Positions 35,656-50,114 are shown, counted from the stretch's first letter. The stretch: 64,000 nucleotides of DNA from Deltaproteobacteria bacterium (GCA_040218735.1 JAVJQW010000067.1:1-64000), one strand, 5' to 3'. The notes: generated by a model not told the origin, from the sequence alone. Translations and numbers: made by a program.

Positions 35656-37899
35656 TTACGGGCAACCCATCCCGGGCAGGATCACCTGGTTCGAGCCGCT
35701 CGACTCGTCGCACTCGTTGTGGTCGCCCGAGTTCGTGCCGCTGCCGTCGTCGTCGACGAGGATGTAGACGTCGCGCGGCGACATCGGCGGCGCCGGCCAG
35801 GTGGCGATGACGAATTCCCCCTCCCCGGGCGCCAGCGCCACCGACGTGGACCCCACCGCGAACGCGGGGTTCGAGGGGGCCGGCGCGCCGTCGTAGAACG
35901 CGACGCTCGTGAGCGGCGGAAGCTGAAGCGCGCCCCGGTTCTCGACCCACACGCCGAGCTGGTTGTTCGCGGGGCACTGCTTGATCGCGAGGGGCCCGTC
36001 CGCCACAGCGTCAGGCGCGGCGAGCGCGACGGAGCCACCGGTGCCCTGCAGGTTCGTGCGGTAGGTGTTGTAGATCAGCCAGCTCGACAGCTGCGGGTAC
36101 GGGACCGTGCCGGCGAGGTCGATGTTGGTGATGTGGTACGCGTGCTGGTTCCAGATCGTGCGCGTGGGCACCCAGTTGTCCTGCACGTCGCCGAAGACCC
36201 GCAGCCCGTTCCCCACCACGCTGCGCCCGAAGTTGTTCGCGCCGACGATGATCTCCGCGTTGCCGTCCCGGTCGACGTCCGCGATCACCGGGTACTCGTG
36301 CGCGGTCAGCGTCGGGTTCGGCGTGGACCACACCACCGCGGCGCTCGCCGTGCCGACGTACGAGTACACGAACAGGGTGTTCTCGTCGTTGTAGACGATC
36401 TCGGCCTGCCCATCGCCGTCGAAGTCGAACACCGACGAACCCGTGCGTGACGACGAGAACTCCTGGATCTCGTTCGACCACACCATCGCGCCGTTCGAGG
36501 CGTCGTACACCGTGTAACGCGTGCGCCCTGCGACACCGATCTCCGGCTCCGGATCCGCGTCGAAGTTCGCGACCGTCGGCGGACCGCCGGCGCCACCGCC
36601 CCGCACCGGGACGCGCCAAAGCTCGTCGCCGTTGGTGTCGATGCCGAAGACCTCACCCTGGGCGACCATCACGAACTCGGGCCGCAGGTCGGCGTCGATC
36701 TGAATCGCCGCCGTGAAGCCGTCCGGGCGCGAGGGGACGTCCCAGAAGATCGTGCCGTTCGCACGGTAGGCCGTCCGCCCCGCGACGACCTCGAGGGTGT
36801 TGTTGCCGTCGATGTCGACCGCAATCGACAGGCCACCGACCCCGTTGCTCCCGTGCCCTTGCGCCGCCGTCCCGCAGAAGCGCACGGCGCCGCTCGTCCC
36901 CTCCAGGACACAGCCGCCGCGGAGCACCTCGGGCCCGCCGCCGTCGAGGTCGGCGATCGCGACGCCGCCCCACAACGACTGGATCGGCCGGCACTCGGCC
37001 GTCGTGCACGCCCAGTACAGCGTGCCGTCGGAGCGCAGCGCGATGACGCCGCCGGTCCAGGCCTCCGTGACGATCTCCACGCGACCGTCACCGTCGAGGT
37101 CCGCCGCCGCGAGGTTGCCCGCGGGCGCGACGCGGCGCGCGACGCCGTCGGCGCTCCACAGCAGCGCGCCGTTGGCACCCGAGACCGCGCGGACGATCCC
37201 CGCCTGCAACTGGTGTTGCAGCGGCTGGCCCGCCGGGCCTGTGGTGTCGAAGCTGATGAAGACGACATCCGGGATGTCGTTGTCGTCCACGAGGTTGTCG
37301 CCGTTATCGTCCGTGAGGTTCACGACGATCGGCGTGCTCATCACCTGATCCTTGTTCGGTTCGACGGAGCCGGCGTTGGTCGTCCACGTCCACTCCGTCG
37401 TCGGCGAGAAGACCCGCGGCGGCGGCGTGTACGTGCAGTTCGGATCGCTGGGGCCGCCGCTGCGCGTGGTGGTCGGCGGGTCGCAGGCGTCGCCCATCCC
37501 GTCGAGGTCGCGGTCGAGCTGGTTCGGGTTCGCGACGTCGATGCAGTTGTCCTCGTCGTCGGGCACGCCGTCGCCGTCGCGATCGTTGTTGCCTGCGTCG
37601 CGGTCGCCGCCGTCGCGCATCATCATCGCGCCACCGTCGCGGTCACCGCCGTCGCGCATCGTGGTGTCGCCGCCGTCGCGCGGGCCGCCGTCGCGGATGA
37701 CGGAGCCGCCGTCGCGTGTGCCCGCGTCGGGGGTCCCGCCGTCGGGGGCTGCGCTCGGGTCGTAGCAGTCCCCGGAGACGCAGACGTTTTCACCGGGGCA
37801 GTCGCTGTCGACCTGGCAGGGGCCGGCGGGGGCTTCGCCGCAGTCGCAGCCGGCGAGCGCCCACACGAGCAGCACCGAGAAGGTACGCACACGTCTCAT
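35656..37899 (-). CDS. FG-GAP/VCBS beta-propeller lipoprotein with TSP3 repeat and CARDB-like C-terminus
   Basis: Lipobox LAGC; RDGG repeats; DxDGDG repeats; WNQHAYHITN. Confidence 0.85.
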   Translation of the reverse strand: MRRVRTFSVLLVWALAGCDCGEAPAGPCQVDSDCPGENVCVSGDCYDPSAAPDGGTPDAGTRDGGSVIRDGGPRDGGDTTMRDGGDRDGGAMMMRDGGDRDAGNNDRDGDGVPDDEDNCIDVANPNQLDRDLDGMGDACDPPTTTRSGGPSDPNCTYTPPPRVFSPTTEWTWTTNAGSVEPNKDQVMSTPIVVNLTDDNGDNLVDDNDIPDVVFISFDTTGPAGQPLQHQLQAGIVRAVSGANGALLWSADGVARRVAPAGNLAAADLDGDGRVEIVTEAWTGGVIALRSDGTLYWACTTAECRPIQSLWGGVAIADLDGGGPEVLRGGCVLEGTSGAVRFCGTAAQGHGSNGVGGLSIAVDIDGNNTLEVVAGRTAYRANGTIFWDVPSRPDGFTAAIQIDADLRPEFVMVAQGEVFGIDTNGDELWRVPVRGGGAGGPPTVANFDADPEPEIGVAGRTRYTVYDASNGAMVWSNEIQEFSSSRTGSSVFDFDGDGQAEIVYNDENTLFVYSYVGTASAAVVWSTPNPTLTAHEYPVIADVDRDGNAEIIVGANNFGRSVVGNGLRVFGDVQDNWVPTRTIWNQHAYHITNIDLAGTVPYPQLSSWLIYNTYRTNLQGTGGSVALAAPDAVADGPLAIKQCPANNQLGVWVENRGALQLPPLTSVAFYDGAPAPSNPAFAVGSTSVALAPGEGEFVIATWPAPPMSPRDVYILVDDDGSGTNSGDHNECDESSGSNQVILPGMGCP

Positions 37900-37960
37900 G
37901 TTTCTGCCCATACACGACCTGAGCGTCCCTGACAGCGGTCGATGAACCGACGAACGCGGC

Positions 37961-39652
37961 TCAGGTGTGGCGGGAGGGGCCTCCGAGGACCGGCTGGAGG
38001 ATGGCCGATATCCCCATGACCGCCCCGCAGCCGATCACGTTGTACCAGAGGAACCCGAGGGACGACCCGAGGAACAGCCCCACGACGATGACCTGGGCGA
38101 TGAGGGCCGCGACGAACACCGGGGTCGCGGTGACACGCTTCAGGAAGAACGCGACGAGGAACAGCCCGAGCACGGTCCCATAGAAGATCGACCCCAGGAT
38201 GTTCACGGCCTCGATCAGGTTGTCGAGGAGCGACGCAAAACTCGCGAAGGCGAGCGCGACCCCGCCCCACATCATCGTAAACAGCTTCGACGCCCGCAGC
38301 GCGTGGGCGTCGGACGCGTCGCGCTTGAAGATGCGTCGGTAGAGATCGATCGTCGTCGTCGACCCGAGCGCGTTGAGCTCGCTCGCCGTGCTGCTCATCG
38401 CCGCGGAGAGGATCACCGCCACCAGCAGCCCGACCAGCCCGACCGGCAGGTACTCGAGGACGAACGCGATGAACACGTAGTCGGCGTCCTTCGTCTCGGC
38501 TTCGGGGAGCGCCTCCGCCACGACCCGCTTCGCTTCGGCGCGCACCTCGGACAGCTCGGCACCGGCGGCGGCGAGCGCGGCCTTCTTGTCATCGACCGGG
38601 CCGCCCTCGTCGAGCGCCGCGACGTACCGCTCGGCGGCGACGCGCTGCACCTCGAAGGCGGCGTCGTACCGGGACTGGACGGTGGCCATCTGCTCCGCCC
38701 GCTCCGTCTCGTACACCGCCGCGAGCGTGGGCTCGTTGAAGAACACGGGCGGCTTCACGAAGACGTAGAACACGAACACGAGCACACCCGTGAACAGGAT
38801 CAGCGCCTGCATCGGGATCTTGAACATCCCGTTGAACAGGAGCCCGAGGCGGCTCTCCGTCACCGATCGCCCCGTGAGGTAGCGCTGCACCTGCGACTGG
38901 TCCGTGCCGAAGTACGACAGCGCGAGGAAGAAGCCGCCCGTGATCCCCGACCAGAAGCTGTAGCGATTCTCGAAGTCGAAGGAGAAGTCGACGACGTTCA
39001 TGCGCCCGAGCGCACCGGCGACCTTGACCGCGTTGGGCAGCGAGACGGTGTCCGAGAGGCGATGCCCGATCACGATTGCGGCGATCACCATGCCCGTCAT
39101 CATGACGACCATCTGGTGCTTCTGGGTCTGGCTGACCATCTTGGTCCCGCCCGACACCGTGTAGACGATCACCACGAGGCCGATCCCGAGGATCGTGAGC
39201 CGCAGCGACCATCCGAGGATCGAGCTCAGGATGATCGCCGGCGCGTAGATCGTGATCCCCGCGGCGAGCCCGCGCTGCACGAGGAACAGGATCGCGCCGA
39301 GGTAGCGGACCTTCGCGTCGAAGCGCCGCTCCAGGTACTCGTACGCGGTGTAGACCTTCAGCCTGTAGTAGATCGGGATGAAGACCGCGCTGATGACGAT
39401 CATCGCGAGCGGCAGCCCGAAGTAGAACTGCACGAAGCGCATCCCGTCTTCGTAGGCCTGGCCCGGCGTCGACAGGAACGTAATCGCGCTCGCCTGCGTC
39501 GCCATCACCGACAGCCCGATCGTCGGCCACGTCAGCGAGTTGCCGCCCTTCAGGTACCCGTCGATGTCCTTCGTGCCGCGGGTGCGCCACGCGCCGTAGC
39601 CGAGGATCGCGAGGATCGTCCCCACCAGCACACACCAGTCGAGCGTCGTCAC
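37961..39652 (-). CDS. Sodium:solute symporter (SSS family)
   Basis: GLSVMATQASAITFLSTPG, TAYEYLERRF, YFGTDQSQVQRYL, ILSAAMSS. Confidence 0.93.
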   Translation of the reverse strand: MTTLDWCVLVGTILAILGYGAWRTRGTKDIDGYLKGGNSLTWPTIGLSVMATQASAITFLSTPGQAYEDGMRFVQFYFGLPLAMIVISAVFIPIYYRLKVYTAYEYLERRFDAKVRYLGAILFLVQRGLAAGITIYAPAIILSSILGWSLRLTILGIGLVVIVYTVSGGTKMVSQTQKHQMVVMMTGMVIAAIVIGHRLSDTVSLPNAVKVAGALGRMNVVDFSFDFENRYSFWSGITGGFFLALSYFGTDQSQVQRYLTGRSVTESRLGLLFNGMFKIPMQALILFTGVLVFVFYVFVKPPVFFNEPTLAAVYETERAEQMATVQSRYDAAFEVQRVAAERYVAALDEGGPVDDKKAALAAAGAELSEVRAEAKRVVAEALPEAETKDADYVFIAFVLEYLPVGLVGLLVAVILSAAMSSTASELNALGSTTTIDLYRRIFKRDASDAHALRASKLFTMMWGGVALAFASFASLLDNLIEAVNILGSIFYGTVLGLFLVAFFLKRVTATPVFVAALIAQVIVVGLFLGSSLGFLWYNVIGCGAVMGISAILQPVLGGPSRHT

Positions 39653-39807
39653 GAGGCCCACCACGTGACGACCGCGAACCCGGCGACGAGGAGCGCGAGC
39701 TGCAGGACGAGGACGAGGTACACGTTCCGCCAGCGCCCGAGGATGGGCGGCGGCGCCTCGGGCGCGTCCTGTTCGCCCGGACCGCTCTGGGGATCGGCCT
39801 CCGTCAC
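39649..39807 (-). CDS. Small single-TM protein (symporter companion)
   Basis: 52 aa containing PPPILGRWRNVYLVLVLQLALLVAGFAVVTWW; GTGA overlaps on both sides. Confidence 0.7.
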   Translation of the reverse strand: MTEADPQSGPGEQDAPEAPPPILGRWRNVYLVLVLQLALLVAGFAVVTWWAS

Positions 39808-42290
39808 GGCGCGCCGAGCCCCACGAGGTTCACGAGCAGCCGGTACGCGCCGGGCACCCCCGCCGGGAGCTGCCGGAAGAACGAGACACCCGTGTACACA
39901 AACGTGCCCTTGCCGTGCTTCGCGACGAGGAGCGCCCCTCGTAGCGGCGCCTCGCCCGCGTCGTTCATCTCGAGGAGCGGCCGATAACGTTCGTCCCAGG
40001 TCTTGGCGAAGTACAGCCCACGCTCCTGAACCCAGCCCGTGAAGTCGGCGGCGGTGATCACGTTCGGGCTCGAGAAGAGGCGGTGCGCGGGGTCGACCAG
40101 CGTGACGGGCGCGTTCTCGTCCGTCACACGCTCGCGATCGATCTGGAACGGGAACGGCCCGACCGGGTCCGTGAGCGTCGTCCACCGGTTGCTCGTGTTG
40201 TACTGCGCGACGAGTGTTCCGCCCGCGGCGACCCACTTCATCAGCGCGTCGTGCGCGGGCGCCAGATCCCTGCGGACGTTGAACGCCCGGACGCCGATCA
40301 CGATCGCACCGTACCGCTCCAGCGCGCCGCGCCGGAGGGACTCTGCGTCGATCTCCTCGACCTCCAGGCCTACGCTCCTCAGGTCATCCGCGACGGTGTC
40401 CCCCGAACCCGGCAGGTAACCGACGCGGACCGACGGGAGCCGCAGCTGCAGCGGCACCAGCCGAAGCTCGGCGACCTGCAAGACAGCTTGCACCGGGATG
40501 TGGTTGTGGTCGATCAGGTCGTAGCGGATCGACGAAGCGCGTCCGGCGACCGTCGCCGTCGGCCGAACCACCGTCGGCTCGGCCCCCTTCGGCGCCGTCA
40601 CCGAGAAGGCCAGCACCTGCTCCGCCCCGGCCTTCACGAACCGCACCTCGTGGGCGGCGGGTGTGACCTTCCACCCCTTCGGAACGGGGAGCGCGATCCG
40701 CGCCGCGACACCGTCCACCGCGGCGCGCGCGGTGATGCGGACGGTGCGCGCCTCCCCGTTCGGGAGCATCGCGTGCGCAGCGAGCGGCGTGACGGTGACC
40801 GGGGGGAGGATCAGGAATCGACGCTCGCGTTCGCCGAGGACCCGATCCGTCGTCACGTGCACCACGGGCCGCGTCAGCGCGAACCGCGAGGCGCCGCTCG
40901 ACAACACGATCCGTACGGTGCGCGCGGGCGGGCCTTCGGGTTCGCCGACCCGCTCGGGGGCCGCCTCGTAGCGGCCGCTCCCGGGGGGCGCGGTGAGCCA
41001 ATACGGGGACGACGGTGCCGCGTCGGTCGGAATGCGCAGCGTCTTCTCGAGCCTCTGCACTGCGTTGGTCTCGAGCACCTTCTTGTCGGGCTCGGGGGAG
41101 TCGCCCCAGTCGATCGATTCGAGCGCGATCTTCGCGGGGCGTCGCTTCACGATTTCGATTTCGACGGCGACCGAGGAGCCCGGCGTCGCCTCCGCACGCT
41201 CGGCGACGGCGCGGACGTACAACCCGGCGGCGTCGGCGATCATCTCCGCGGTCCGGTCGCGTGCGTCGAGCACCCGCGGCACCGGCTGCTTCGCCGCGAG
41301 CCGGTCGAGCGCCGCGAAGGCGGCGAGGAGGCCCGGGAGTGCATCTTCCGGGCGGTCCGAGCGGTACGCCCGACGCGCGCGTTCGAGCGAGGTCCGCACT
41401 TTCGTCGCTCCGCGAATGCGACGCCAGCTCGTGTCGATCCCTTCGAAGAGGTCCTTGTCGGGGCGACGCCCCGCGATCGGTTCGAAGTACTCCCAGATCG
41501 GACCACGCACCCCGGCCGACCCAAAGCCCTGGCTCTTGTGCATGCTTCGGCTCGCCGCCGCGAGCTCTCCGTAGGACTGACCGAGGCGCGGGTCGTACGC
41601 GCCAACGTCGAGCGCGAGGTAGGCGTCGAGCCCGTCGTCGTCGTCGCGTCCCCAGCGCGGGACGTTCAGGAGCAACCGCTGGGCGCGCCACGTCTGGCCC
41701 CCACGTTCGAGCTGCTCCGGGAATCGCTTCGGATCCGCGGCCGCCTCGAAGGCCTCGTGCGCGAGGATCGCCGACGCGGTGTGGTGTCCGTGGTTGGGCG
41801 GAGACTCGGTGAAGCGCGTGATGACGACGTCGGGTCTAAACGACCGGATGACCCACACGACGTCCGCGAGGATCGCGTCGTGGCCCCATGTCGCGAACGT
41901 CTCCTCGGCGGTCTTGGAGTAGCCGAAGTCGCGCGCACGTGTGAAGCGCTGTTCGGCGCCGTCGATCCGCCGCGCCGCGAGCAGCTCCTGCGTTCGGATG
42001 ACACCGAGCAGCGCGGCCTGCTCCGACCCGATCAGGTTCTGACCGCCGCCCCCGCGCGTCATGGACAGGTAGGCGACCTGGAGGTGCTTCGCGTTGGCGA
42101 GGTATCCGAGGAGGCGCGTGTTCTCGTCGTCGGGGTGCGCCGCGACGTAGAGGACACGCCCCGTGTTCAAGAGCCGCTCGATCGCGACCTGCTGAGCCCC
42201 CGTGTGCATGACCTCCGCGCCCTCCGCTTCGTGCACGACCGCTCCGAACACGAGGCTCGAAGTCATCGATAGCGTCCACCAGCCCTTCAT
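39804..42290 (-). CDS. Probably exported PIG-L/LmbE-family deacetylase with NEW3-like Ig domain and GATase-like C-terminus
   Basis: Signal-like N-terminus; AAHPDDE, RTQEL..ARRIDG, DFGYSK, HGHH; C-terminal VGYLPGSGD...FFRQLPAGVPGAYRLLVN. Confidence 0.88.
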   Translation of the reverse strand: MKGWWTLSMTSSLVFGAVVHEAEGAEVMHTGAQQVAIERLLNTGRVLYVAAHPDDENTRLLGYLANAKHLQVAYLSMTRGGGGQNLIGSEQAALLGVIRTQELLAARRIDGAEQRFTRARDFGYSKTAEETFATWGHDAILADVVWVIRSFRPDVVITRFTESPPNHGHHTASAILAHEAFEAAADPKRFPEQLERGGQTWRAQRLLLNVPRWGRDDDDGLDAYLALDVGAYDPRLGQSYGELAAASRSMHKSQGFGSAGVRGPIWEYFEPIAGRRPDKDLFEGIDTSWRRIRGATKVRTSLERARRAYRSDRPEDALPGLLAAFAALDRLAAKQPVPRVLDARDRTAEMIADAAGLYVRAVAERAEATPGSSVAVEIEIVKRRPAKIALESIDWGDSPEPDKKVLETNAVQRLEKTLRIPTDAAPSSPYWLTAPPGSGRYEAAPERVGEPEGPPARTVRIVLSSGASRFALTRPVVHVTTDRVLGERERRFLILPPVTVTPLAAHAMLPNGEARTVRITARAAVDGVAARIALPVPKGWKVTPAAHEVRFVKAGAEQVLAFSVTAPKGAEPTVVRPTATVAGRASSIRYDLIDHNHIPVQAVLQVAELRLVPLQLRLPSVRVGYLPGSGDTVADDLRSVGLEVEEIDAESLRRGALERYGAIVIGVRAFNVRRDLAPAHDALMKWVAAGGTLVAQYNTSNRWTTLTDPVGPFPFQIDRERVTDENAPVTLVDPAHRLFSSPNVITAADFTGWVQERGLYFAKTWDERYRPLLEMNDAGEAPLRGALLVAKHGKGTFVYTGVSFFRQLPAGVPGAYRLLVNLVGLGAP

Positions 42291-43450
42291 GCGCCTCCCT
42301 CCGCCGCCACGACCCGCGCGTAGTAGCGCTCGTAGCGATCGACCGCCGGCCCCACGCCGTAACGGGCTTCGACGTGTCTGCGCGCCGCGGCGCCCATCGC
42401 GATGCGGCGCCTATCGTCCGCGAGCAGCTCGTCCGCGGCGTCCGCGAGCGCCTCGACGTCGCGGTTTTCGATCAACACGCCGGTCTCTTGGTGCTGTACG
42501 ACCTCGGGGAGCCCCCCGACGGCGTACGCCAGGACCGGCAGGCCGCAGCTCGCCGCCTCGAGCGCCGCGAGCCCGAAGCTCTCCATCTCGCTCGTCAGCA
42601 GGAACAGATCGGCGTGCGCGAGGTAGCCGGCGACGTCCTCGCTCGCGCCGACGAACGCGACGTTCGCCCCGAGGCCGTGCGCCCGGACCGCCTCTTCGAC
42701 GGCGGGCCGGTCCGGGCCGTCACCGACCAGGAGCAATCGCGCGCGGCGCCGCTCCCTCAGCCGGGCGAGCACGGCGACGAGGTCCGCGGTGCGCTTCACG
42801 GGCCGAAAGTTCGAGATGTGCACGAGGACCGGCGCGCCGACGTCCGCGCCCGGCCCGAAACACACGTCGAGCTTCGAGCGGTCACGTTCGAACGGGGGCC
42901 GAAAGGCCGCGGTGTCGACGAAGTTCTCGATCACCTCCACGTGCGGAGCGTCGAGCGCGAAGGCCTCGCACGCGGCCTGCTGGAGATAACGCGACGGCGT
43001 CGTCACCCCCGCCGCGGCGCGGATCGCAAAGCCGTTCACGACGCGATCCGGCGGCGTGTTCCCGACCCGCGTGACGTCGGTGCCATGCAAAGTGATGATG
43101 ACCTTCGGCGCTCGTGCGCCGAGGACCTGCTGCGCCAGATAGGCGCTGACGGCGTGCGGCACCGCGTAGTGAGCGTGGACGAGATCGAGGCCCCTGCTCT
43201 GCGCGAGCTCGACGAGCTTCGAGGTGACCGCCAGGCCGTACAGCGGCTGCTCGAACAGCGGGTAGGCGGCCGGCGACAGCGTGTGCAGCTCGACACCCGA
43301 CTCTCGGCCGAGGCGGTGCGGCGCCTCGCTCGCGACGACGTGAACCTCGTGCCCGCGGGCCGCCATGCTCCGCGCGAGCTCGGTGGCGACGACGCCGCTG
43401 CCCCCGTACGACGAGAAGCAGACGTAGGCGATGCGCAGTCGCCGGGTCAC
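42287..43450 (-). CDS. bshA: N-acetyl-alpha-D-glucosaminyl L-malate synthase
   Basis: YGGSGVVATEL, HAHYAVPHA, TLHGTD, HISNFRPVKR, ESFGLAALEA. Confidence 0.93.
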   Translation of the reverse strand: MTRRLRIAYVCFSSYGGSGVVATELARSMAARGHEVHVVASEAPHRLGRESGVELHTLSPAAYPLFEQPLYGLAVTSKLVELAQSRGLDLVHAHYAVPHAVSAYLAQQVLGARAPKVIITLHGTDVTRVGNTPPDRVVNGFAIRAAAGVTTPSRYLQQAACEAFALDAPHVEVIENFVDTAAFRPPFERDRSKLDVCFGPGADVGAPVLVHISNFRPVKRTADLVAVLARLRERRRARLLLVGDGPDRPAVEEAVRAHGLGANVAFVGASEDVAGYLAHADLFLLTSEMESFGLAALEAASCGLPVLAYAVGGLPEVVQHQETGVLIENRDVEALADAADELLADDRRRIAMGAAARRHVEARYGVGPAVDRYERYYARVVAAEGGA

Positions 43451-44244
43451 CGACGCCCCTCGATCACAAACGCGTGCGGATAGTCGTGGCGCCGAAAGTG
43501 CGCGACCGGGTCGTCGATCCCGAGCACCTCGACGACGCGGAGGGGCTCGCCGTGGGCGACGCCGATCATGCTCCCGAAGTAGCGGTCCCGCGCGTCGAGC
43601 GCGTCGAGCGCACCGGGGGCGCCCACCAGCGTCGGCGTCGCGGGGCGTGCGACCTGACTCGCGTAGCACGCGATCGCCTCGCGTTTGCGCTCCGCCGCCT
43701 CGGTCGTGTCGACCACGAACGTCGGCGACATCGTGTGCCGCTGCGCGTAGTACAAGACCCGACGCACGCGGTGCGGCGCGAGCGCGGCGGGAGTCTCGAA
43801 CCGCGCGACGTGGGCGAAGAACAGCGCCTTGGTGAGGAGCTCACTGGCCGCGGAGTGGTCCGGGTGTCGAGCCTCGCTCCAGGGGATGAGGACGAGCTCC
43901 GGCTTCAGGCGGCGGATCGCCTCCACGACGCGCACGACCTGCGACCGGGCGAGGCGAGCGGGCGCTTCGAGGTCGTGTCCGGACCACGGCGACAGCCACG
44001 TGTCGGGGAGGCCGAGGTTTTCGCGCACGGAGAGCCCGAGCACCTTCGCCGCCGCTGCGGCCTCGGCGCGTCGGGTGGCGACGTCGCCGTTGGACGCGCG
44101 CTCGCCCTCCGTGAGATCGAGGACCGCGGTGGTGTGCCCGAGGTCCGCCATGCGGATGAGGATGCCGCCGCAGAACAGCTCGACGTCGTCCGGGTGGGGT
44201 CCGATCGCGAGGAGATCGACGCCGCCGTCCGTCCTCGAGGTCAC
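43447..44244 (-). CDS. bshB1: Bacillithiol biosynthesis deacetylase
   Basis: GPHPDDVEL, DLTEGE, RENLGLPD, RHPDH, YASQ. Confidence 0.9.
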   Translation of the reverse strand: MTSRTDGGVDLLAIGPHPDDVELFCGGILIRMADLGHTTAVLDLTEGERASNGDVATRRAEAAAAAKVLGLSVRENLGLPDTWLSPWSGHDLEAPARLARSQVVRVVEAIRRLKPELVLIPWSEARHPDHSAASELLTKALFFAHVARFETPAALAPHRVRRVLYYAQRHTMSPTFVVDTTEAAERKREAIACYASQVARPATPTLVGAPGALDALDARDRYFGSMIGVAHGEPLRVVEVLGIDDPVAHFRRHDYPHAFVIEGRR

Positions 44245-45824
44245 CACGTGATCTCCTGGAGCGCGCCTTCGAAGGGGCGACAGCGCGCGAGGACATCTTC
44301 GACCACACGCTCCGCGGAGTAACGCGCGGCGAAGTAAGGCAGGCCGAAGACCCGCTCCTGCGGCGCGTCGTTCGGCTGGAGCGCCCACCGAATCCGTCGC
44401 GCGCGATCGACGCGGTCTTCGTCCTCGTGCAGGACCGCTCGCTCGTACTTGTCGGTGAAGCGTTGGATGGTCCCTTCGATCGTCGCTGCGGTCTTGGCGT
44501 GCGCGCGTTCGAGTCCGCCGAGGCCGCGCCACGCAGGCGCCGCTTCGTCGAGCGCGCTCTTCATGCGCGCGACGAGCTCGGCCTCGAGCGCTGCACGGCC
44601 CCGCCGCGTCGCACCGCCCGACGCCTTCTTCAGGAGCTCGTCCAGCGGCGCCGCGGCGTCGTCCGCCGTCAGGTTCAACGACTGGAGTGTGCGGGCGGTG
44701 CGCGTCTCGACGATCGTGAAGCGCGCGCGCGGCACGATCACCGGCATGGGGAGGTCGAACGCCTCGTAGACCGGGCCCATCTGCGCGAAGTAGTCGATCT
44801 CTCCCGGCCCGCCGACATACGCGGCTGTCGGGAACCACGTGTCCTGAAGGATGGGCCTCAGGAGCGCGCTCGTGCTGAAGGCACGCGGGTTCGACTCCAG
44901 CTCTGCGAGCAGCGTCGACGCCGTCGAACGCCCCTCCCCGCCGACGACCGTGTACACGTCCCCGTCGCGGTCGAGGCGGTGCCGCGGCCCCTCTGGGCCA
45001 TCCGGGTGGAAGAACGACAGCGGCGCTCCGGGGCGGACGTAGACCTGAGTGTCGAAGCCGAGCTCCGTGAGCCGGGCACAACGCTCGTCGAGCCCGCGCG
45101 CGATGACGTCCGCGGACGCGATCGCGCGGCGATGCACCGGCGCGGCCGCCGCGGCGAGCCCTCGGTCGCGGGGGTCGATCACCAAGAGCCCCGACGGCCC
45201 GAACAGCTCGCGGAGCCACCCCGCGAACGCATCGGGCCACGTCGCGCCGACGTGGTAGTGACGCCGGATCACATCGAGGGTGGCGGCCGCGTGCGGCAGG
45301 TTGCCGATCGTCGCCTCGAGCTCCGCGATGACCTCGTCGATCGCCGGATCGAAGCGACGGTGCGCCATCGAGATCGGCGAAGCGTCCGGCGCCTCGACGC
45401 GGAGCGGACGAGGTTCGGCGGCGCCCTGCGGGATCCACGTGGTCGCGACCTCGTCGAAGTCGTGATCCTCGGTCTGCAGCCAGAAGATCGGGACGACGGG
45501 GACGCCGCAGGCAGACTGGAGCGCGCGGGCCGCGACCACCGCCGAGGCCGCCTTGTACACGGTGTACAGCGGGCCGAGGAACAGCCCGACCTGCTGCCCC
45601 GTGAGCACCGCCGCCGCGCCGCCGCGCGCGAGCACATCGAGGTGCGCGCGGCAGGCGTCGCCGGTCGCGCTGTGGCGCTCGAGCGCCGCGAGGACGGCGT
45701 CCGGAACGCGACGTGTGGCGGCGTCCCGGACAGCGGCTTCACGATCGCTGGCCGCCCTCGCCTGGCGCTTCAGGAGGTGACCGCACCGTTCGTCGCCCGA
45801 CGTGTAAGCTTGCGAGAATCGCAT
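44241..45824 (-). CDS. bshC: Bacillithiol biosynthesis cysteine-adding enzyme
   Basis: TGQQVGLFLGPLYTVYKA, WLQTEDHDFDE, LLRPILQD, GGPGEIDYFAQ, PQER. Confidence 0.93.
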   Translation of the reverse strand: MRFSQAYTSGDERCGHLLKRQARAASDREAAVRDAATRRVPDAVLAALERHSATGDACRAHLDVLARGGAAAVLTGQQVGLFLGPLYTVYKAASAVVAARALQSACGVPVVPIFWLQTEDHDFDEVATTWIPQGAAEPRPLRVEAPDASPISMAHRRFDPAIDEVIAELEATIGNLPHAAATLDVIRRHYHVGATWPDAFAGWLRELFGPSGLLVIDPRDRGLAAAAAPVHRRAIASADVIARGLDERCARLTELGFDTQVYVRPGAPLSFFHPDGPEGPRHRLDRDGDVYTVVGGEGRSTASTLLAELESNPRAFSTSALLRPILQDTWFPTAAYVGGPGEIDYFAQMGPVYEAFDLPMPVIVPRARFTIVETRTARTLQSLNLTADDAAAPLDELLKKASGGATRRGRAALEAELVARMKSALDEAAPAWRGLGGLERAHAKTAATIEGTIQRFTDKYERAVLHEDEDRVDRARRIRWALQPNDAPQERVFGLPYFAARYSAERVVEDVLARCRPFEGALQEITW

Positions 45825-45852
45825 CGTCGGCTCGGGAGCGTCCTCGACGACC

Positions 45853-46695
45853 CTACTTCCAGGTCTTCGCGGCCTCTTCGATGCGCGGCTTGTAGAAGGC
45901 GAAGGCACCGCTCTTGTCGCCCTTCTTCAGGGCGCTCGCGGCGAGGGCTCCCGCCTCCTTCTTCTTGCCCATCTTCTCGAGGATCTGCGCCTTCACCCAC
46001 TCGTTGCGCCACGTGGCCTGGATGCGAATGGACGTGTCGATGTACTCGAGCGCCTTCTTGGTGTCGCCGTGCTCGAGGAGGTACTGGGCCGAACGCAGGT
46101 GCGGCAGCGGCGCGCCGTTCACGGCCGACTCGATGTTGGCGAGGACCTGGGCGTGGGTGTCGACCTGAATCGGGATCGAGACGCGCTGGTCGGCCCACTC
46201 CAGATCGAGCCGCGTCGCGTCGTCGGTCGTGTCGGAGAACAAAAACGTTAGCCGCTCACGCGCGGAAGAGCGCGCCGGCTTCACGGTCACCCGTGCGGCG
46301 TCCTTCTTCTTGTCGTAATTCGAGCTGCCCCACAGCTCCGTCTCGCGGTTCAGGATGACGGTCCACTGCTTGGCGGTCGGGATCGTGAAGACGGAGTAGT
46401 CGCCCTTCGGCACGGCCTTGCCGCCGAACTTCACGTCGCGCGAAAACGAGATCTTCGTGGCCTTGTTGGCGCCGGTTCGCCAGACCTCACCGTAGGGGAC
46501 GAGCCCCCCGAAGATCTTCCGGCCCTTCACGCCGGGGCTGCTGTAGGTGATCGCGACGTCGGTCAGGCCGACGCGTTGATGCACCTCGGCCGCGGGGCTG
46601 GCGGCCGGTGTCTCCGGGCCCGCCTGGGCGATCGCGAGGGAAGGTGTGGCCAGCGCAAACGCCAGTGCGAAGTGAGGGGCAGAAAGTCGATACAT
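45853..46695 (-). CDS. DUF2911 exported protein with TPR-like C-terminus
   Basis: Signal peptide; ASPAA.V.QRVGLT...YSSPGVKGRKIFGGLVPYGEVWRTGAN. Confidence 0.9.
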   Translation of the reverse strand: MYRLSAPHFALAFALATPSLAIAQAGPETPAASPAAEVHQRVGLTDVAITYSSPGVKGRKIFGGLVPYGEVWRTGANKATKISFSRDVKFGGKAVPKGDYSVFTIPTAKQWTVILNRETELWGSSNYDKKKDAARVTVKPARSSARERLTFLFSDTTDDATRLDLEWADQRVSIPIQVDTHAQVLANIESAVNGAPLPHLRSAQYLLEHGDTKKALEYIDTSIRIQATWRNEWVKAQILEKMGKKKEAGALAASALKKGDKSGAFAFYKPRIEEAAKTWK

Positions 46696-46803: not shown

Positions 46804-48285
46804 TCAGAAGACACGCAAGCGGTCCGCGACAGCGGCGCCCGAGAGGACGGCGCGGGCCTGCTCGGCGCGCCGATCGATCACCTTCTGGATGAAGGCCATC
46901 GCCTGCGGACGCGCGCGCACGATGGTGAGGAAGTCGTCGCGTGGGAGCTCGATGGCGAAGCACTTCGTGGTCGCGCGGACGCTCCCCATCGCGGGTTTGT
47001 CGGTCAGGATCGACATCTCTCCGACCACGTCGGAGGGGCCGAGCATCCCGACGCGCACGGGCTTGCCGTCCCGCTCGACCAGCGCCTCGGCGGTGCCGGC
47101 GAGGAGGACGAGGAGGCTGCTGGCGGGGGTGCCGGACCGAACGAGGAGCGCGCCGGGCTCGACTTCGAGGAACGAGAACCGGCGCCCGAGCGCCATTTTG
47201 TCGTTGTCGGAGAGGCCCTGGAACAGCGGGTTCTCCGCGAGGAGGCGCTCGACGCTGCGGTTTCGGAAGAACCGCAGCAGCACGGTGAGCACGCCGGGGT
47301 CGTCCTCGATGAGCTCGTGGATCATCCCGCGGTCGATCGCGATGACCTGCGCGTCCGTCAGCGCGAGGATCGTCGCGCTGCGGGGTTGGTCGGTGAGGAG
47401 CGCGATCTCGCCGAAGAAGTCGCCCTCCTTCAGCTTGGAGATCCCGCGCCGCGGCGGGCCCTCGTCGATGACGCCGACGGTGCCCTCCGCGATCACGTAG
47501 AGCTGATCACCCGGCTCGCCCTGACGAAACAGCGTCTGCTCCTTCGCGAGGTTCACGATGCTCGCCGCCATCAACAGCTGCCCGAAGCTCGACTCCGGCA
47601 GCTGCGCGAACAGCGAAGTCTCGGAGAGCGCCTTGTTCGTTTGCTCGGCGAGGCGGAACTCCTCCTCGACCGCGAGCACCGCGGCGTCCTCCACCGCGAA
47701 GCCGCGGTTTTGTTCGGTCACCGCGTCGGGGTTGGCCGCCGCGAACAGCGGCGTCGTGGCGGTGACACCGGGGCCCTCCTCGACGATGTCCTCCAGCGGG
47801 ATGGTGTAGATGCTCGCCTCGTCGTCGCTGCGCGTCAGGTCGCGCGTGGCGCCCGGGACGGCGTCCTTCAGCGTGACACTCGACAGCGCCGAGCCGCGCT
47901 CCCACTCGCCCGTGATCGCCTTGGGCGGCGGGCGTTGCCGAACGGTGGTGGATCCGGGGCGCTGGCGGTGCGCGTTCCGGAGCTTCTCGATCCGCGCGAG
48001 GGTCTCGGGGTGCCGCGGCGCGATCTCGAGCAGCTGCTTCGAGACGGTCGCGGACTTCAGGTAGTCGCCGGTCTTTTCGTACAGACGCGCGGCGCGGTTG
48101 AGGGCGTCGACCTCTTCCTTCGGGCGGTTCAGTCGGCGGTAGAGCTTCGCGGTGCGGCGCGGCCAACCCGGGTCGTGGGGGTCGGCGGCTTCGAGCTGCA
48201 GGCTCAGACGCAGCGCCTCTTCGAGACGCCCCGCCTTCACGGCAGCGACGGCGGCGTCGCTGAGCGCCTTCAGCTTCTCGCTCAT
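46804..48285 (-). CDS. TPR plus two cyclic-nucleotide-binding domains
   Basis: FRQGEPG...FFGEIALL..PRSAT and VVGEMSIL...SVRA. Confidence 0.88.
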   Translation of the reverse strand: MSEKLKALSDAAVAAVKAGRLEEALRLSLQLEAADPHDPGWPRRTAKLYRRLNRPKEEVDALNRAARLYEKTGDYLKSATVSKQLLEIAPRHPETLARIEKLRNAHRQRPGSTTVRQRPPPKAITGEWERGSALSSVTLKDAVPGATRDLTRSDDEASIYTIPLEDIVEEGPGVTATTPLFAAANPDAVTEQNRGFAVEDAAVLAVEEEFRLAEQTNKALSETSLFAQLPESSFGQLLMAASIVNLAKEQTLFRQGEPGDQLYVIAEGTVGVIDEGPPRRGISKLKEGDFFGEIALLTDQPRSATILALTDAQVIAIDRGMIHELIEDDPGVLTVLLRFFRNRSVERLLAENPLFQGLSDNDKMALGRRFSFLEVEPGALLVRSGTPASSLLVLLAGTAEALVERDGKPVRVGMLGPSDVVGEMSILTDKPAMGSVRATTKCFAIELPRDDFLTIVRARPQAMAFIQKVIDRRAEQARAVLSGAAVADRLRVF

Positions 48286-48320: not shown

Positions 48321-50114
48321 TCAGCGCTTGCGGGGGCGCGGGAGATCGTACTTCTCGATCTTCTTCACCAGCGTCTGCCGGGAGATGCCGAGCGCGCGGG
48401 CGGCGCGGGTCTGGTTCTGGGCGTGGGCCTCCAGCGCGCGAACGACCCGCTCGCGCTCCTCGGCCTCGCGCGGGGTCAACGGCCGCCCACCCGGCCCCAC
48501 CGGGACCACCGTCATCGCGTGCACGCTCGCGTCCGAGGTCTTGGGGAGCGGCGGGCTCGCGGCCTGCGGCGGTGCGAGCCAGGTCGCGGACATCTTCTCC
48601 ACCGGGAGGTGCGCGCGACCGATGCGGCCGTCCGTCGACAGGAGCACGGCGCGCTCCATGGCGTTCTTCAGCTCGCGCAGATTCCCCGGCCAGTCGTAGC
48701 GCTCGAGGATCGCCTGGGCCTCCGGCTCGATCTTCGGCGGCGCGGTGTTCGCGTCTTCGGCGGCGCGCTCCAGGAACGCGCGCGCGAAGGTCATCAGCTC
48801 GCCCTTGCGCTCGCGCAGCGGCGGGATCGTGAGGGAGACGCCGCACAGCCGGAAGTACAGATCCTCACGGAAGGTGTTCTCGCGGATGCCCTTCTCCAGG
48901 TCACGGTTGGTGGCGGAGACGTAGCGGACGTCGATCGCCTTCGGCGTCAGCGCGCCGAGGCGCTGCACTTCGCCCTGCTCCAGGACCCGGAGCAACTTCA
49001 CTTGCAACGGCAGCGGGAGCTCGCCGAGCTCGTCGAGGAACACCGTGCCGCCGTGGGCGTGTTCGAGGAGGCCCGGCTTGGGCTGGTCGGCGCCGGTGAA
49101 GGCGCCCTTTTCGTACCCGAACAGCTCGCTCTCCAGGAGGTTGGGCGAGAACGCGCCGCAGTTCAGTCGAACGAACGGTTTGCTCGCGCGCGGGGAGCGT
49201 CGGTGGATCTCGGCCGCGAGGACCTCCTTGCCGACACCCGTCTCGCCGAGGATGAGGACGCCGATCTTCCCGCGCGCGACACGTTCGGCGACGCGGAACA
49301 GGTCGACCATCGCGTGGTCCTCGACGATCGGGCGATCCTCGAAGATCGAGTGGTTCGAGCTATCCGCAACCGAGGTTGCGCCGCGCGCGCGTTGGCGGGC
49401 GGCGGCGATCAAGGCGTCGGGGGTGCGGCCGTCCTTGGGGAACTGCGCGACGCCGACGCGCGCCGGGGTGTCGTACCCGTCGAGGTGGGCGATCAGGTCC
49501 GCGGTGAGGCGAGAGGCGCGGTCCCCGCCCCCGAAGAGCAGCACCTCGTACTGGCCCTCCGCGTAGCGACCGATCAGGTCGGTCGGTTCGGCGAGGAGCG
49601 AGAGTGTGCCTTCGACGGCTTCGCGGTCCGCGCCGGTGGGGGCGTCGAGCCAGAGGACGGCGAGCCCGAGCGCGCCGCGTCCTTCCAGGCCGCAGCTCTC
49701 CTCCAGGCGCATCTCGAAGTAGCCCTGCGGCCAGAGGCGACGCGCGCGCGGGCGGTTCGTCTGGCGCTGGACGACGAGCAGAGTCCCGGCGATTTCGACG
49801 ACCTGCCCGGGTTCGAGCAGCGTGCGCTCACCCCCGTTCAGCTCGCGCCCGCTCACGAAGGTGCCGTTGGTACCACCGAGGTCCTCGATGTAGACGTCGT
49901 CGTCGACCTCGATGCGCGCGTGCTGCCGCGACACGAGGGGGTCGTCGATGAAGACGTCGGCGGAGTCGAGGCGGCCGATGGTCAGCGCGCCCGAGTCCGG
50001 GAGTGGGTAGGTCGCGACCGAACCGTCGCCGATGACGGCGAGGAACAGACGTTCGTCGTCGGTGCCGAGCACCGGCAGCGACTCGACGGTGGTGCCGTAA
50101 ACTGTCTCCTCCAA
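48321..50114 (-). CDS. Sigma-54 enhancer-binding protein: FHA, degenerate GGDEF-like domain, AAA+, HTH
   Basis: IGR..VSRQHA..NGT; GETGVGKE, GAFTGA, FLDE, WPGNLREL, NQTRAARALGISR. Confidence 0.93.
   Translation of the reverse strand: MEETVYGTTVESLPVLGTDDERLFLAVIGDGSVATYPLPDSGALTIGRLDSADVFIDDPLVSRQHARIEVDDDVYIEDLGGTNGTFVSGRELNGGERTLLEPGQVVEIAGTLLVVQRQTNRPRARRLWPQGYFEMRLEESCGLEGRGALGLAVLWLDAPTGADREAVEGTLSLLAEPTDLIGRYAEGQYEVLLFGGGDRASRLTADLIAHLDGYDTPARVGVAQFPKDGRTPDALIAAARQRARGATSVADSSNHSIFEDRPIVEDHAMVDLFRVAERVARGKIGVLILGETGVGKEVLAAEIHRRSPRASKPFVRLNCGAFSPNLLESELFGYEKGAFTGADQPKPGLLEHAHGGTVFLDELGELPLPLQVKLLRVLEQGEVQRLGALTPKAIDVRYVSATNRDLEKGIRENTFREDLYFRLCGVSLTIPPLRERKGELMTFARAFLERAAEDANTAPPKIEPEAQAILERYDWPGNLRELKNAMERAVLLSTDGRIGRAHLPVEKMSATWLAPPQAASPPLPKTSDASVHAMTVVPVGPGGRPLTPREAEERERVVRALEAHAQNQTRAARALGISRQTLVKKIEKYDLPRPRKR

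Follow-up and report, generated by a model that had tools for sequence, protein, structure and literature searches.

The subject of this analysis is a gene cluster within a 64,000-nucleotide stretch of DNA from Deltaproteobacteria bacterium (GCA_040218735.1 JAVJQW010000067.1:1-64000; this whole stretch is the window below), where the genes for bacillithiol (BSH) synthesis are joined to genes for a very large, putatively exported hydrolase and a sodium/solute symporter. The host genome measures 11.6 Mb at ~70% G+C, and the relatives of the window are Myxococcota. A check of open reading frames (ORFs) recovered, at 37961..46695 and all on the minus strand, the seven genes that the initial annotation had placed there. 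The first gene of the cluster encodes a DUF2911 protein with C-terminal tetratricopeptide repeats (TPRs) (45853..46695; PF11138). It is followed by bshC (44241..45824, the longest ORF extending to 45908; TIGR03998), whose product adds cysteine to glucosaminyl-malate (GlcN-malate), bshB1 (43447..44244; TIGR04001) for the deacetylase of N-acetylglucosaminyl-malate (GlcNAc-malate), and bshA (42287..43450; TIGR03999) for the GlcNAc-malate synthase, a GT4-family enzyme. The last three genes encode an 828-aa putatively exported LmbE/PIG-L hydrolase that we call bigPIGL (39804..42290; PF02585), a 52-aa membrane peptide read from a small ORF with one hydrophobic helix (39649..39807), and an SSS-family Na+/solute symporter (37961..39652; PF00474, TIGR00813).

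All three bsh products exceed the equivalog cut-offs of their families: BshC at 421.9 bits against 265.8 for TIGR03998 (with PF10079 and PF24850 also matched), BshB1 at 247.2 against 182.5 for TIGR04001 (with PF02585 at 89.8 bits), and BshA at 405.9 against 273.7 for TIGR03999 (with PF00534 and PF13439, the GT4 architecture). Because the TIGR03998 match begins only at residue 29 of the longest bshC ORF, the true start is probably the ATG at 45824; in a genome search the match spans 44262-45824. From bshC to the symporter every junction is a 4-bp overlap on the minus strand, as had been proposed, and all five can be read off in the sequence: GTGA at 44244..44241 (bshC/bshB1), GTGA at 43450..43447 (bshB1/bshA), ATGA at 42290..42287 (bshA/bigPIGL), GTGA at 39807..39804 (bigPIGL/peptide) and GTGA at 39652..39649 (peptide/symporter). 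A GGAGG motif lies 5' of the bigPIGL ATG, itself part of the ATGA overlap with bshA. If bshC starts at 45824, a gap of ~28 nt, with no overlap, separates it from the DUF2911 gene. A promoter scan of the cluster stretch returned no sites, and terminator-like sites there were not above those of shuffled sequence.

BigPIGL belongs to the PIG-L superfamily by its PF02585 match (59 bits, threshold 28.2, residues 47-180), and its AlphaFold2 (AF2) model (predicted local distance difference test score, pLDDT, 86.5; predicted template modelling score, pTM, 0.86; residues 1-27 disordered) resolves into a putative signal peptide at ~1-27, an LmbE/PIG-L metallohydrolase domain at ~30-290 followed by a helical linker, beta-sandwich domains at ~357-614, and a GATase1/ThuA-like domain at ~619-828 that lacks an invariant Cys. 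Structural comparison with VIA-align identified the N-terminal domain as an LmbE fold, with LnmX (Z 18.6, root-mean-square deviation (rmsd) 2.7, 201 residues aligned), MshB (Z 18.2, rmsd 3.7, 232 aligned; Foldseek E 9e-10) and BC1534 (Z 17.2, rmsd 3.0, 197 aligned) among its matches, and aligned the C-terminal domain with 2gk3 (Z 16.6), 3rht (Z 16.3) and the ThuA-like 1t0b (Z 15.5). The metal site is kept: H52, D55 and H170 align with H13, D16 and H147 of MshB, which we take to be its zinc ligands, and D54 aligns with D15, presumably the general base. H167 aligns with MshB H144, His169 stands where MshB has Asp146, and H52, D54, D55, H167 and H170 are invariant across 22 sequences. In BshB the equivalent zinc ligands are His12, Asp15 and His113 (PMC5790435, a review). 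No equivalog cut-off is reached by bigPIGL, the scores being 51.7 bits against 277.15 for Mca (its best NCBIfam similarity), 32.3 against 224.35 for MshB, 24.2 against 182.5 for BshB1 and 22.2 against 195.25 for BshB2. The family is very large: at least 8000 clusters (90% identity) were matched, none of them bearing a name more specific than "PIG-L family deacetylase" or "LmbE family".

The earlier claim that the PIG-L enzyme carries a signal peptide has support from its relatives, in which Sec-type signal peptides, judged by eye, were found in every phylum examined. A cytoplasmic isoform started internally at Met28 (42207-42209), directly after the putative signal peptide, is conceivable and unsupported: Met28 is kept in 20 of 22 close relatives and not in Bacteroidota or in Myxococcota lacking BshB1, and the GGAGG motifs upstream of it are badly spaced.

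Paralogues of bigPIGL occur as well. The host genome (G000) holds six PIG-L-family genes in all, including G000:C16:66920-67543 (L002) and genes on contigs C9, C41 and C48; long frames (676 and 668 aa) contain two of the others, and one of these two is 38% identical to bigPIGL residues 42-264. G207, G214, G218, G221, G223 and ~20 further Bacteroidota genomes carry a family of paralogues (frames of 630-830 aa) that matches bigPIGL only in the PIG-L and GATase1-like domains (two-part matches, E 1e-43 to 1e-65), the middle being different.

The symporter is a member of the SSS superfamily (TIGR00813, 234.4 bits against 184; PF00474, 138.7 against 22.8) that reaches no equivalog cut-off within it (PRK10484, 151.6 against 401; PutP, 72.5 against 515.5; PanF, 53.4 against 328; VC_2705, 46.8 against 320.75). 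The best solved matches to a profile of its subfamily were SiaT (5nv9, 222.6 bits), SMVT (211.4), SMCT1 (210.4) and NIS (208.3), with the glucose transporters well below (vSGLT at 169.5, SGLT1/2 at 126-137 bits); by profile score, then, the closest solved relatives are carriers of sugar acids or other carboxylate-bearing solutes. Ser55 and Thr58 of the symporter align with Ser60 and Thr63 of SiaT, which presumably contact the sialic acid carboxylate, whereas Arg135 of SiaT aligns with Ala, an invariant arginine of the symporter (Arg127) standing three residues earlier. A broken copy was seen in a Flavobacteriaceae metagenome-assembled genome (MAG) at L007:4842-5621, where the frame ends at 260 aa and the tblastn match runs on, which suggests a frameshift or an assembly error.

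The 52-aa peptide matches no Pfam or NCBIfam family, and in this it sets the module's subfamily apart from SiaT, SMVT and SMCT1, in that the subfamily has a dedicated, translationally coupled one-helix partner of its own; other SSS transporters have known small subunits. Across module loci the peptide measures roughly 30-75 aa with a single helix, with P21, W26 and Y30 unchanged across the 26 sequences compared. Wherever bigPIGL and the symporter are adjacent (60 pairs), our script found a matching small ORF between them, though two of these calls (L060 and L081, with insertions) look spurious. The genes for peptide and symporter share a 4-bp stop/start overlap in all 25 related loci examined, and the overlap is kept in three loci whose symporter and bigPIGL genes are unlinked. 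Complex prediction from family alignments gave the peptide and symporter an interface score (ipSAE) of 0.82 against 0.00 for the best control, with at least 79% contact agreement among runs and a partner pLDDT of at least 70; 58 of 80 solved complexes score that high, as do 2 of 110 mismatched pairs. This prediction supports binding of the peptide to the symporter and falls short of proof; the peptide is probably an accessory subunit.

The DUF2911 protein (PF11138, 185.6 bits against a threshold of 27, with a weak TPR match) has in the window a signal peptide ending in AIAQA, and signal peptides were found in 37 of the 37 relatives listed. It has no conserved Cys; W72, R73, G75, A76, N77, G98, Y100, P106, W111 and W167 are invariant. 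The AF2 model (pLDDT 91.3) consists of a beta domain (35-177) and three TPRs (180-278). A sequence search of the PDB gave no match at E<=1, Foldseek gave none at E<=1e-3 for the whole model, and a wide VIA-align search gave TPR matches only, at residues 178-280. Its role is possibly that of a periplasmic binding or docking protein.

We compared 80 genomic loci from Myxococcota, Bacteroidota, Ignavibacteria, Acidobacteriota (including Aminicenantes), Binatia and Eisenbacteria, and by this comparison of sequences DUF2911, bigPIGL, the one-helix peptide and the SSS symporter make up an old, conserved four-part module, to which the symporter subfamily appears to be dedicated. The symporter directly follows bigPIGL in 60 of the 74 informative loci, and in one more (Aminicenantes L012) it follows after an intervening bshC-bshB1-bshA; a symporter orthologue was encoded elsewhere in four of five tested genomes with an unlinked bigPIGL. 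DUF2911 lies inside the locus in 38 of the 80, mostly just downstream on the opposite strand, and the co-occurrence of DUF2911, SSS and large PIG-L genes in Bacteroidota, stated in the initial annotation, was confirmed among these loci. When ORFs from 88 loci were clustered, the groups obtained were bigPIGL, the symporter, DUF2911, the bsh genes, antisense artefacts and synteny peculiar to single lineages, and no additional partner was widespread; neither this clustering nor neighbourhood scans revealed a recurring exporter or recurring catabolic sugar genes near the module.

The bsh genes stand beside or inside the module in four distinct arrangements. In the window the order is DUF2911-bshC-bshB1-bshA-bigPIGL-peptide-SSS; in Myxococcus (L005) bshA-bshB1-bshC is divergent from bigPIGL-SSS; in Aminicenantes (L012) the three bsh genes separate bigPIGL from SSS; and in a second Acidobacteriota subfamily (33-37% identity; L084, L085) SSS precedes bigPIGL, with bshC convergent right behind.

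Some loci carry additional neighbours. In two Pontibacter loci (L010:5185-6099, L020:14826-15740) the symporter and DUF2911 genes flank one for a methyltransferase dependent on S-adenosylmethionine (Methyltransf_31/11/25), and another methyltransferase gene lies upstream of DUF2911 at L003:2757-3608; these are conceivable N-methyl-bacillithiol synthases, though a search for a model or named structure of that enzyme, NmbA, gave nothing. At L083:6641-11096 (G636) genes for a ROK-type regulator (MarR_2 and ROK) and a TonB-dependent receptor immediately precede those for the symporter and bigPIGL, and bshC and mutL lie farther upstream. At L088 (G570) two DinB_2 proteins with Sec signal peptides (L088:3442-4056 and L088:4130-4918) are encoded directly downstream of the symporter, and at L018 a gene of the glutathione peroxidase family adjoins DUF2911. 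DinB-type proteins include bacillithiol S-transferases, in line with the abstract of PMC5815605, and the pair at this single locus, L088, are possible periplasmic thiol S-transferases.

The distribution of the module was compared with that of the BSH genes in samples of 201 Myxococcota genomes (including the unpublished G195), 201 Acidobacteriota genomes (including the unpublished G479 and G504) and 251 Bacteroidota genomes. In Myxococcota bigPIGL was present in 61 genomes, the symporter orthologue in the same 61, DUF2911 in 60 and BshC in 62; 60 genomes had all four and 138 had none. The 60 with DUF2911 were exactly those with both bigPIGL and BshC. Of the exceptions, G088 (86% complete) carries an operon that a contig boundary interrupts, with a BshB1 fragment at the contig start, and G124 and G126 have BshC only. 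Presence was patchy within families (12 of 19 genomes in f1, 37 of 54 in f9), covering 24-26 of 110 genera. The symporter subfamily thus co-occurs strictly with the PIG-L enzyme in Myxococcota, in 61 of 61 genomes. Among Acidobacteriota, BshC was found in 81 of the 92 bigPIGL-positive genomes vs. 38 of the 109 bigPIGL-negative ones; six of the 11 bigPIGL-positive, BshC-negative genomes have a divergent BshC-like frame, and in two BshA lies directly upstream of bigPIGL. The divergent BshC-like clade was seen in G558, G570, G594, G605, G616 and G627, and also in G495, G511, G525, G538 and G562, as two-part matches (30-125 bits; frames of 400-640 aa) that fall well short of the TIGR03998 cut-off. 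In Bacteroidota each of the 95 genomes that matched the bigPIGL family has BshC, and all ten BshC-negative genomes lack bigPIGL; this is a weak test, because BshC is present in 241 of the 251 anyway. In five further genomes of other lineages where bigPIGL is unlinked from bsh genes, BshC was found above cut-off on another contig in every case. The counts in the three phyla thus give no sign of a module common in genomes without bshABC, the finding that would have told most directly against the link to BSH that had been suggested, and we hold with high confidence that the module has a functional tie of some kind to bacillithiol.

From the gene content, the export signals, the intact catalytic motif, the conservation of the module, its co-distribution and clustering with bsh genes, and the predicted complex of symporter and peptide, we infer a substrate, a transported solute and a direction of flux. 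Periplasmic bigPIGL would hydrolyse the amide bond of a bacillithiol-related glucosaminyl-malate compound, the candidates being the Cys-GlcN bond of BSH, of bacillithiol disulfide (BSSB) or of bacillithiol conjugates (BS-conjugates), by chemistry of the Mca/Bca type, or alternatively the acetyl group of GlcNAc-malate, by chemistry of the BshB type. The symporter and its small subunit would return GlcN-malate to the cytoplasm, where BshC would re-charge it with cysteine. That an exported LmbE hydrolase yields GlcN-malate outside the cytoplasm, and a two-part symporter brings it back for BshC, is our leading proposal, though one on which we are evenly divided. The salvage arm, periplasmic PIG-L enzyme plus symporter, of the initial annotation gains from the bsh link, from the signal peptides of the relatives and from the carboxylate-type relatives of the symporter; its premise about bshB1 has fared less well, as described below.

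Several observations weigh against recovery of GlcN-malate from the periplasm. The N-terminus of bigPIGL in the window is a weaker signal peptide than those of its relatives, with one Lys and a hydrophobic stretch rich in Ser/Thr. No symporter lies within 10 kb of bigPIGL in 13 of the 74 informative loci, and three of the 92 bigPIGL-positive Acidobacteriota (G537, G549, G614) have neither BshC nor BshA. The ROK regulator and TonB-dependent receptor of L083 resemble those of nutrient-uptake loci, at a single locus. The co-distribution counts come from related genomes, which are not independent samples; the Myxococcota genes are adjacent and therefore expected to be gained and lost jointly even without shared function; and the sampling covered diderm lineages, the monoderm BSH producers (Bacillota, Deinococcota) lying outside it. 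Finally, a role in salvage only would leave unexplained the module-bearing Myxococcota that have BshA and BshC and no BshB1, 21 of 60 at E<=1e-25, many of them 97-100% complete.

These last genomes bear on the premise that bshB1 already supplies the deacetylase, which holds in the window but not generally. In G070 (99% complete, 9 contigs) and G022 (97%) BshA and BshC score above their equivalog cut-offs and PF02585 matches nothing in the genome except bigPIGL, and the MAGs G658 and G660 have the same pattern; in operons without BshB1, bigPIGL directly follows bshA. Because it is the sole PIG-L gene in some genomes with BshA and BshC, bigPIGL may supply the deacetylation itself. LmbE enzymes of the BSH pathway can combine deacetylase with amidase activity, as documented for the single BshB of S. 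aureus, and Mca can back up MshB (PMC5790435). BigPIGL could then be the pathway's own deacetylase, a functional BshB, with synthesis running through the periplasm: GlcNAc-malate made by BshA would be exported and deacetylated outside, and GlcN-malate re-imported by the symporter for BshC, the two routes being redundant where BshB1 is also present, as in the window. Against this, bigPIGL keeps its signal peptide in the genomes without BshB1 (G070 and G022 among them), yet no GlcNAc-malate exporter recurs near the module; three of five tested BshB1-less genomes hold another small PIG-L gene able to substitute, and a deacetylase from an unrelated family could act instead; and ~70% of BshC-positive Bacteroidota lack bigPIGL, which is thus not generally required. 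We consider a periplasmic route of synthesis unlikely, though worth keeping in view. A broader form, where such compartment-crossing synthesis relies on bigPIGL as the sole deacetylase in many diderms, the whole machinery doubles as the BSH counterpart of the gamma-glutamyl cycle, and DUF2911 serves as the binding or docking factor, strikes us as similarly doubtful.

Less probable still is a role in periplasmic detoxification or sulfur scavenging, where bigPIGL would cleave exported or environmental BS-conjugates or BSSB chiefly to cysteine or cysteine conjugates and the symporter solute might differ from GlcN-malate. Among families, the PIG-L domain is most similar to the conjugate amidase Mca, and the exported DinB_2 pair after the symporter in L088 and the glutathione-peroxidase-family gene beside DUF2911 in L018 would suit such a role, but these neighbours are single loci with no recurrence among the 88, and GlcN-malate recovery accords better with the strict pairing of the module with BshC and a sugar-acid-like symporter. 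Uptake and deacetylation of an ordinary N-acetyl-hexosamine glycoside as a nutrient, with the bsh association due to shared ancestry and chance synteny, is the least credible alternative, for although diacetylchitobiose deacetylases are also among the structural matches to the PIG-L domain, many carbohydrate-active enzymes have beta-sandwich and ThuA-like domains, and the ROK regulator and receptor stand upstream in L083, the co-distribution holds at genus level within Myxococcota families, the enrichment in Acidobacteriota is marked, bsh genes and module meet in four arrangements, and catabolic sugar genes do not recur nearby.

The known enzymes BshB1, BshB2/Bca, MshB and Mca are cytoplasmic. 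BigPIGL shares with them the LmbE fold (Z 17-18 to MshB and BC1534), the His/Asp/His zinc site with its general base, and linkage to a thiol pathway, whereas it is ~3x larger, with added beta-sandwich and GATase1-like domains, is putatively exported and partnered by a symporter, and scores far under all of their equivalog cut-offs. The reaction to be expected from the likeness is deacetylation of a GlcNAc-R compound or cleavage of a Cys-GlcN bond (PMC5790435).

The proposed recovery of GlcN-malate also resembles the glutathione (GSH) salvage of Gram-negative bacteria, which uses a periplasmic gamma-glutamyl transpeptidase: there, and in the module as proposed, an exported hydrolase cleaves the main thiol outside and the fragments are taken up again. 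The two share neither enzyme family nor thiol nor type of transporter, and the resemblance is one of proposed function and not of family membership. E. coli exports GSH to the periplasm (PMC5790435). The row of ROK regulator, TonB-dependent receptor, symporter and bigPIGL in L083 is like the receptor-enzyme-transporter uptake loci of Bacteroidota and Acidobacteriota, but that arrangement occurs in one locus only, outside the conserved core, and no TonB-dependent receptor adjoins the cluster in the window.

Bacillithiol and its derivatives have been proposed to be the most widespread low-molecular-weight thiols of bacteria, and BSH genes have been predicted in Acidobacteria, Bacteroidetes, Gemmatimonadetes and Proteobacteria (Hiras et al., PMC6282198); the part of that paper available to us makes no mention of the module. 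A review describes neither import or export of BSH or BSSB nor a periplasmic process like that of glutathione as established (PMC5790435). The full-text literature, which for this search did not extend to subscription journals and supplementary files, yielded no description of the module. What would be new is an LmbE-family hydrolase of a thiol pathway placed in the periplasm and coupled to a dedicated importer, and the module suggests that bacillithiol metabolism has an extracytoplasmic branch not yet described. It supplies named candidates for the gap in BSH import and export, namely a putatively exported LmbE-type hydrolase out of a very large family and a dedicated symporter with a previously unannotated subunit, and gives a context to DUF2911; it also raises the question of how GlcNAc-malate is deacetylated in genomes with BshA and BshC but no BshB. 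Genetic testing is feasible, as tractable Myxococcus strains carry the module (L005).

No YpdA-type disulfide reductase was identified in the host genome, the best match scoring 163 bits against a cut-off of 340. Upstream of the cluster, on the same strand, the window encodes a protein with two cyclic nucleotide monophosphate (cNMP)-binding domains and a TPR (46804-48285) and, further upstream, an FHA/sigma-54 activator (48321-50114); between these genes and DUF2911 there is a terminator-like hairpin (46828-46814). Downstream, an FG-GAP repeat protein is encoded on the same minus strand at 35656-37911, beginning 50 nt beyond the symporter, and in Myxococcus another FG-GAP protein (L005:14492-15598) adjoins the symporter on the opposite strand.

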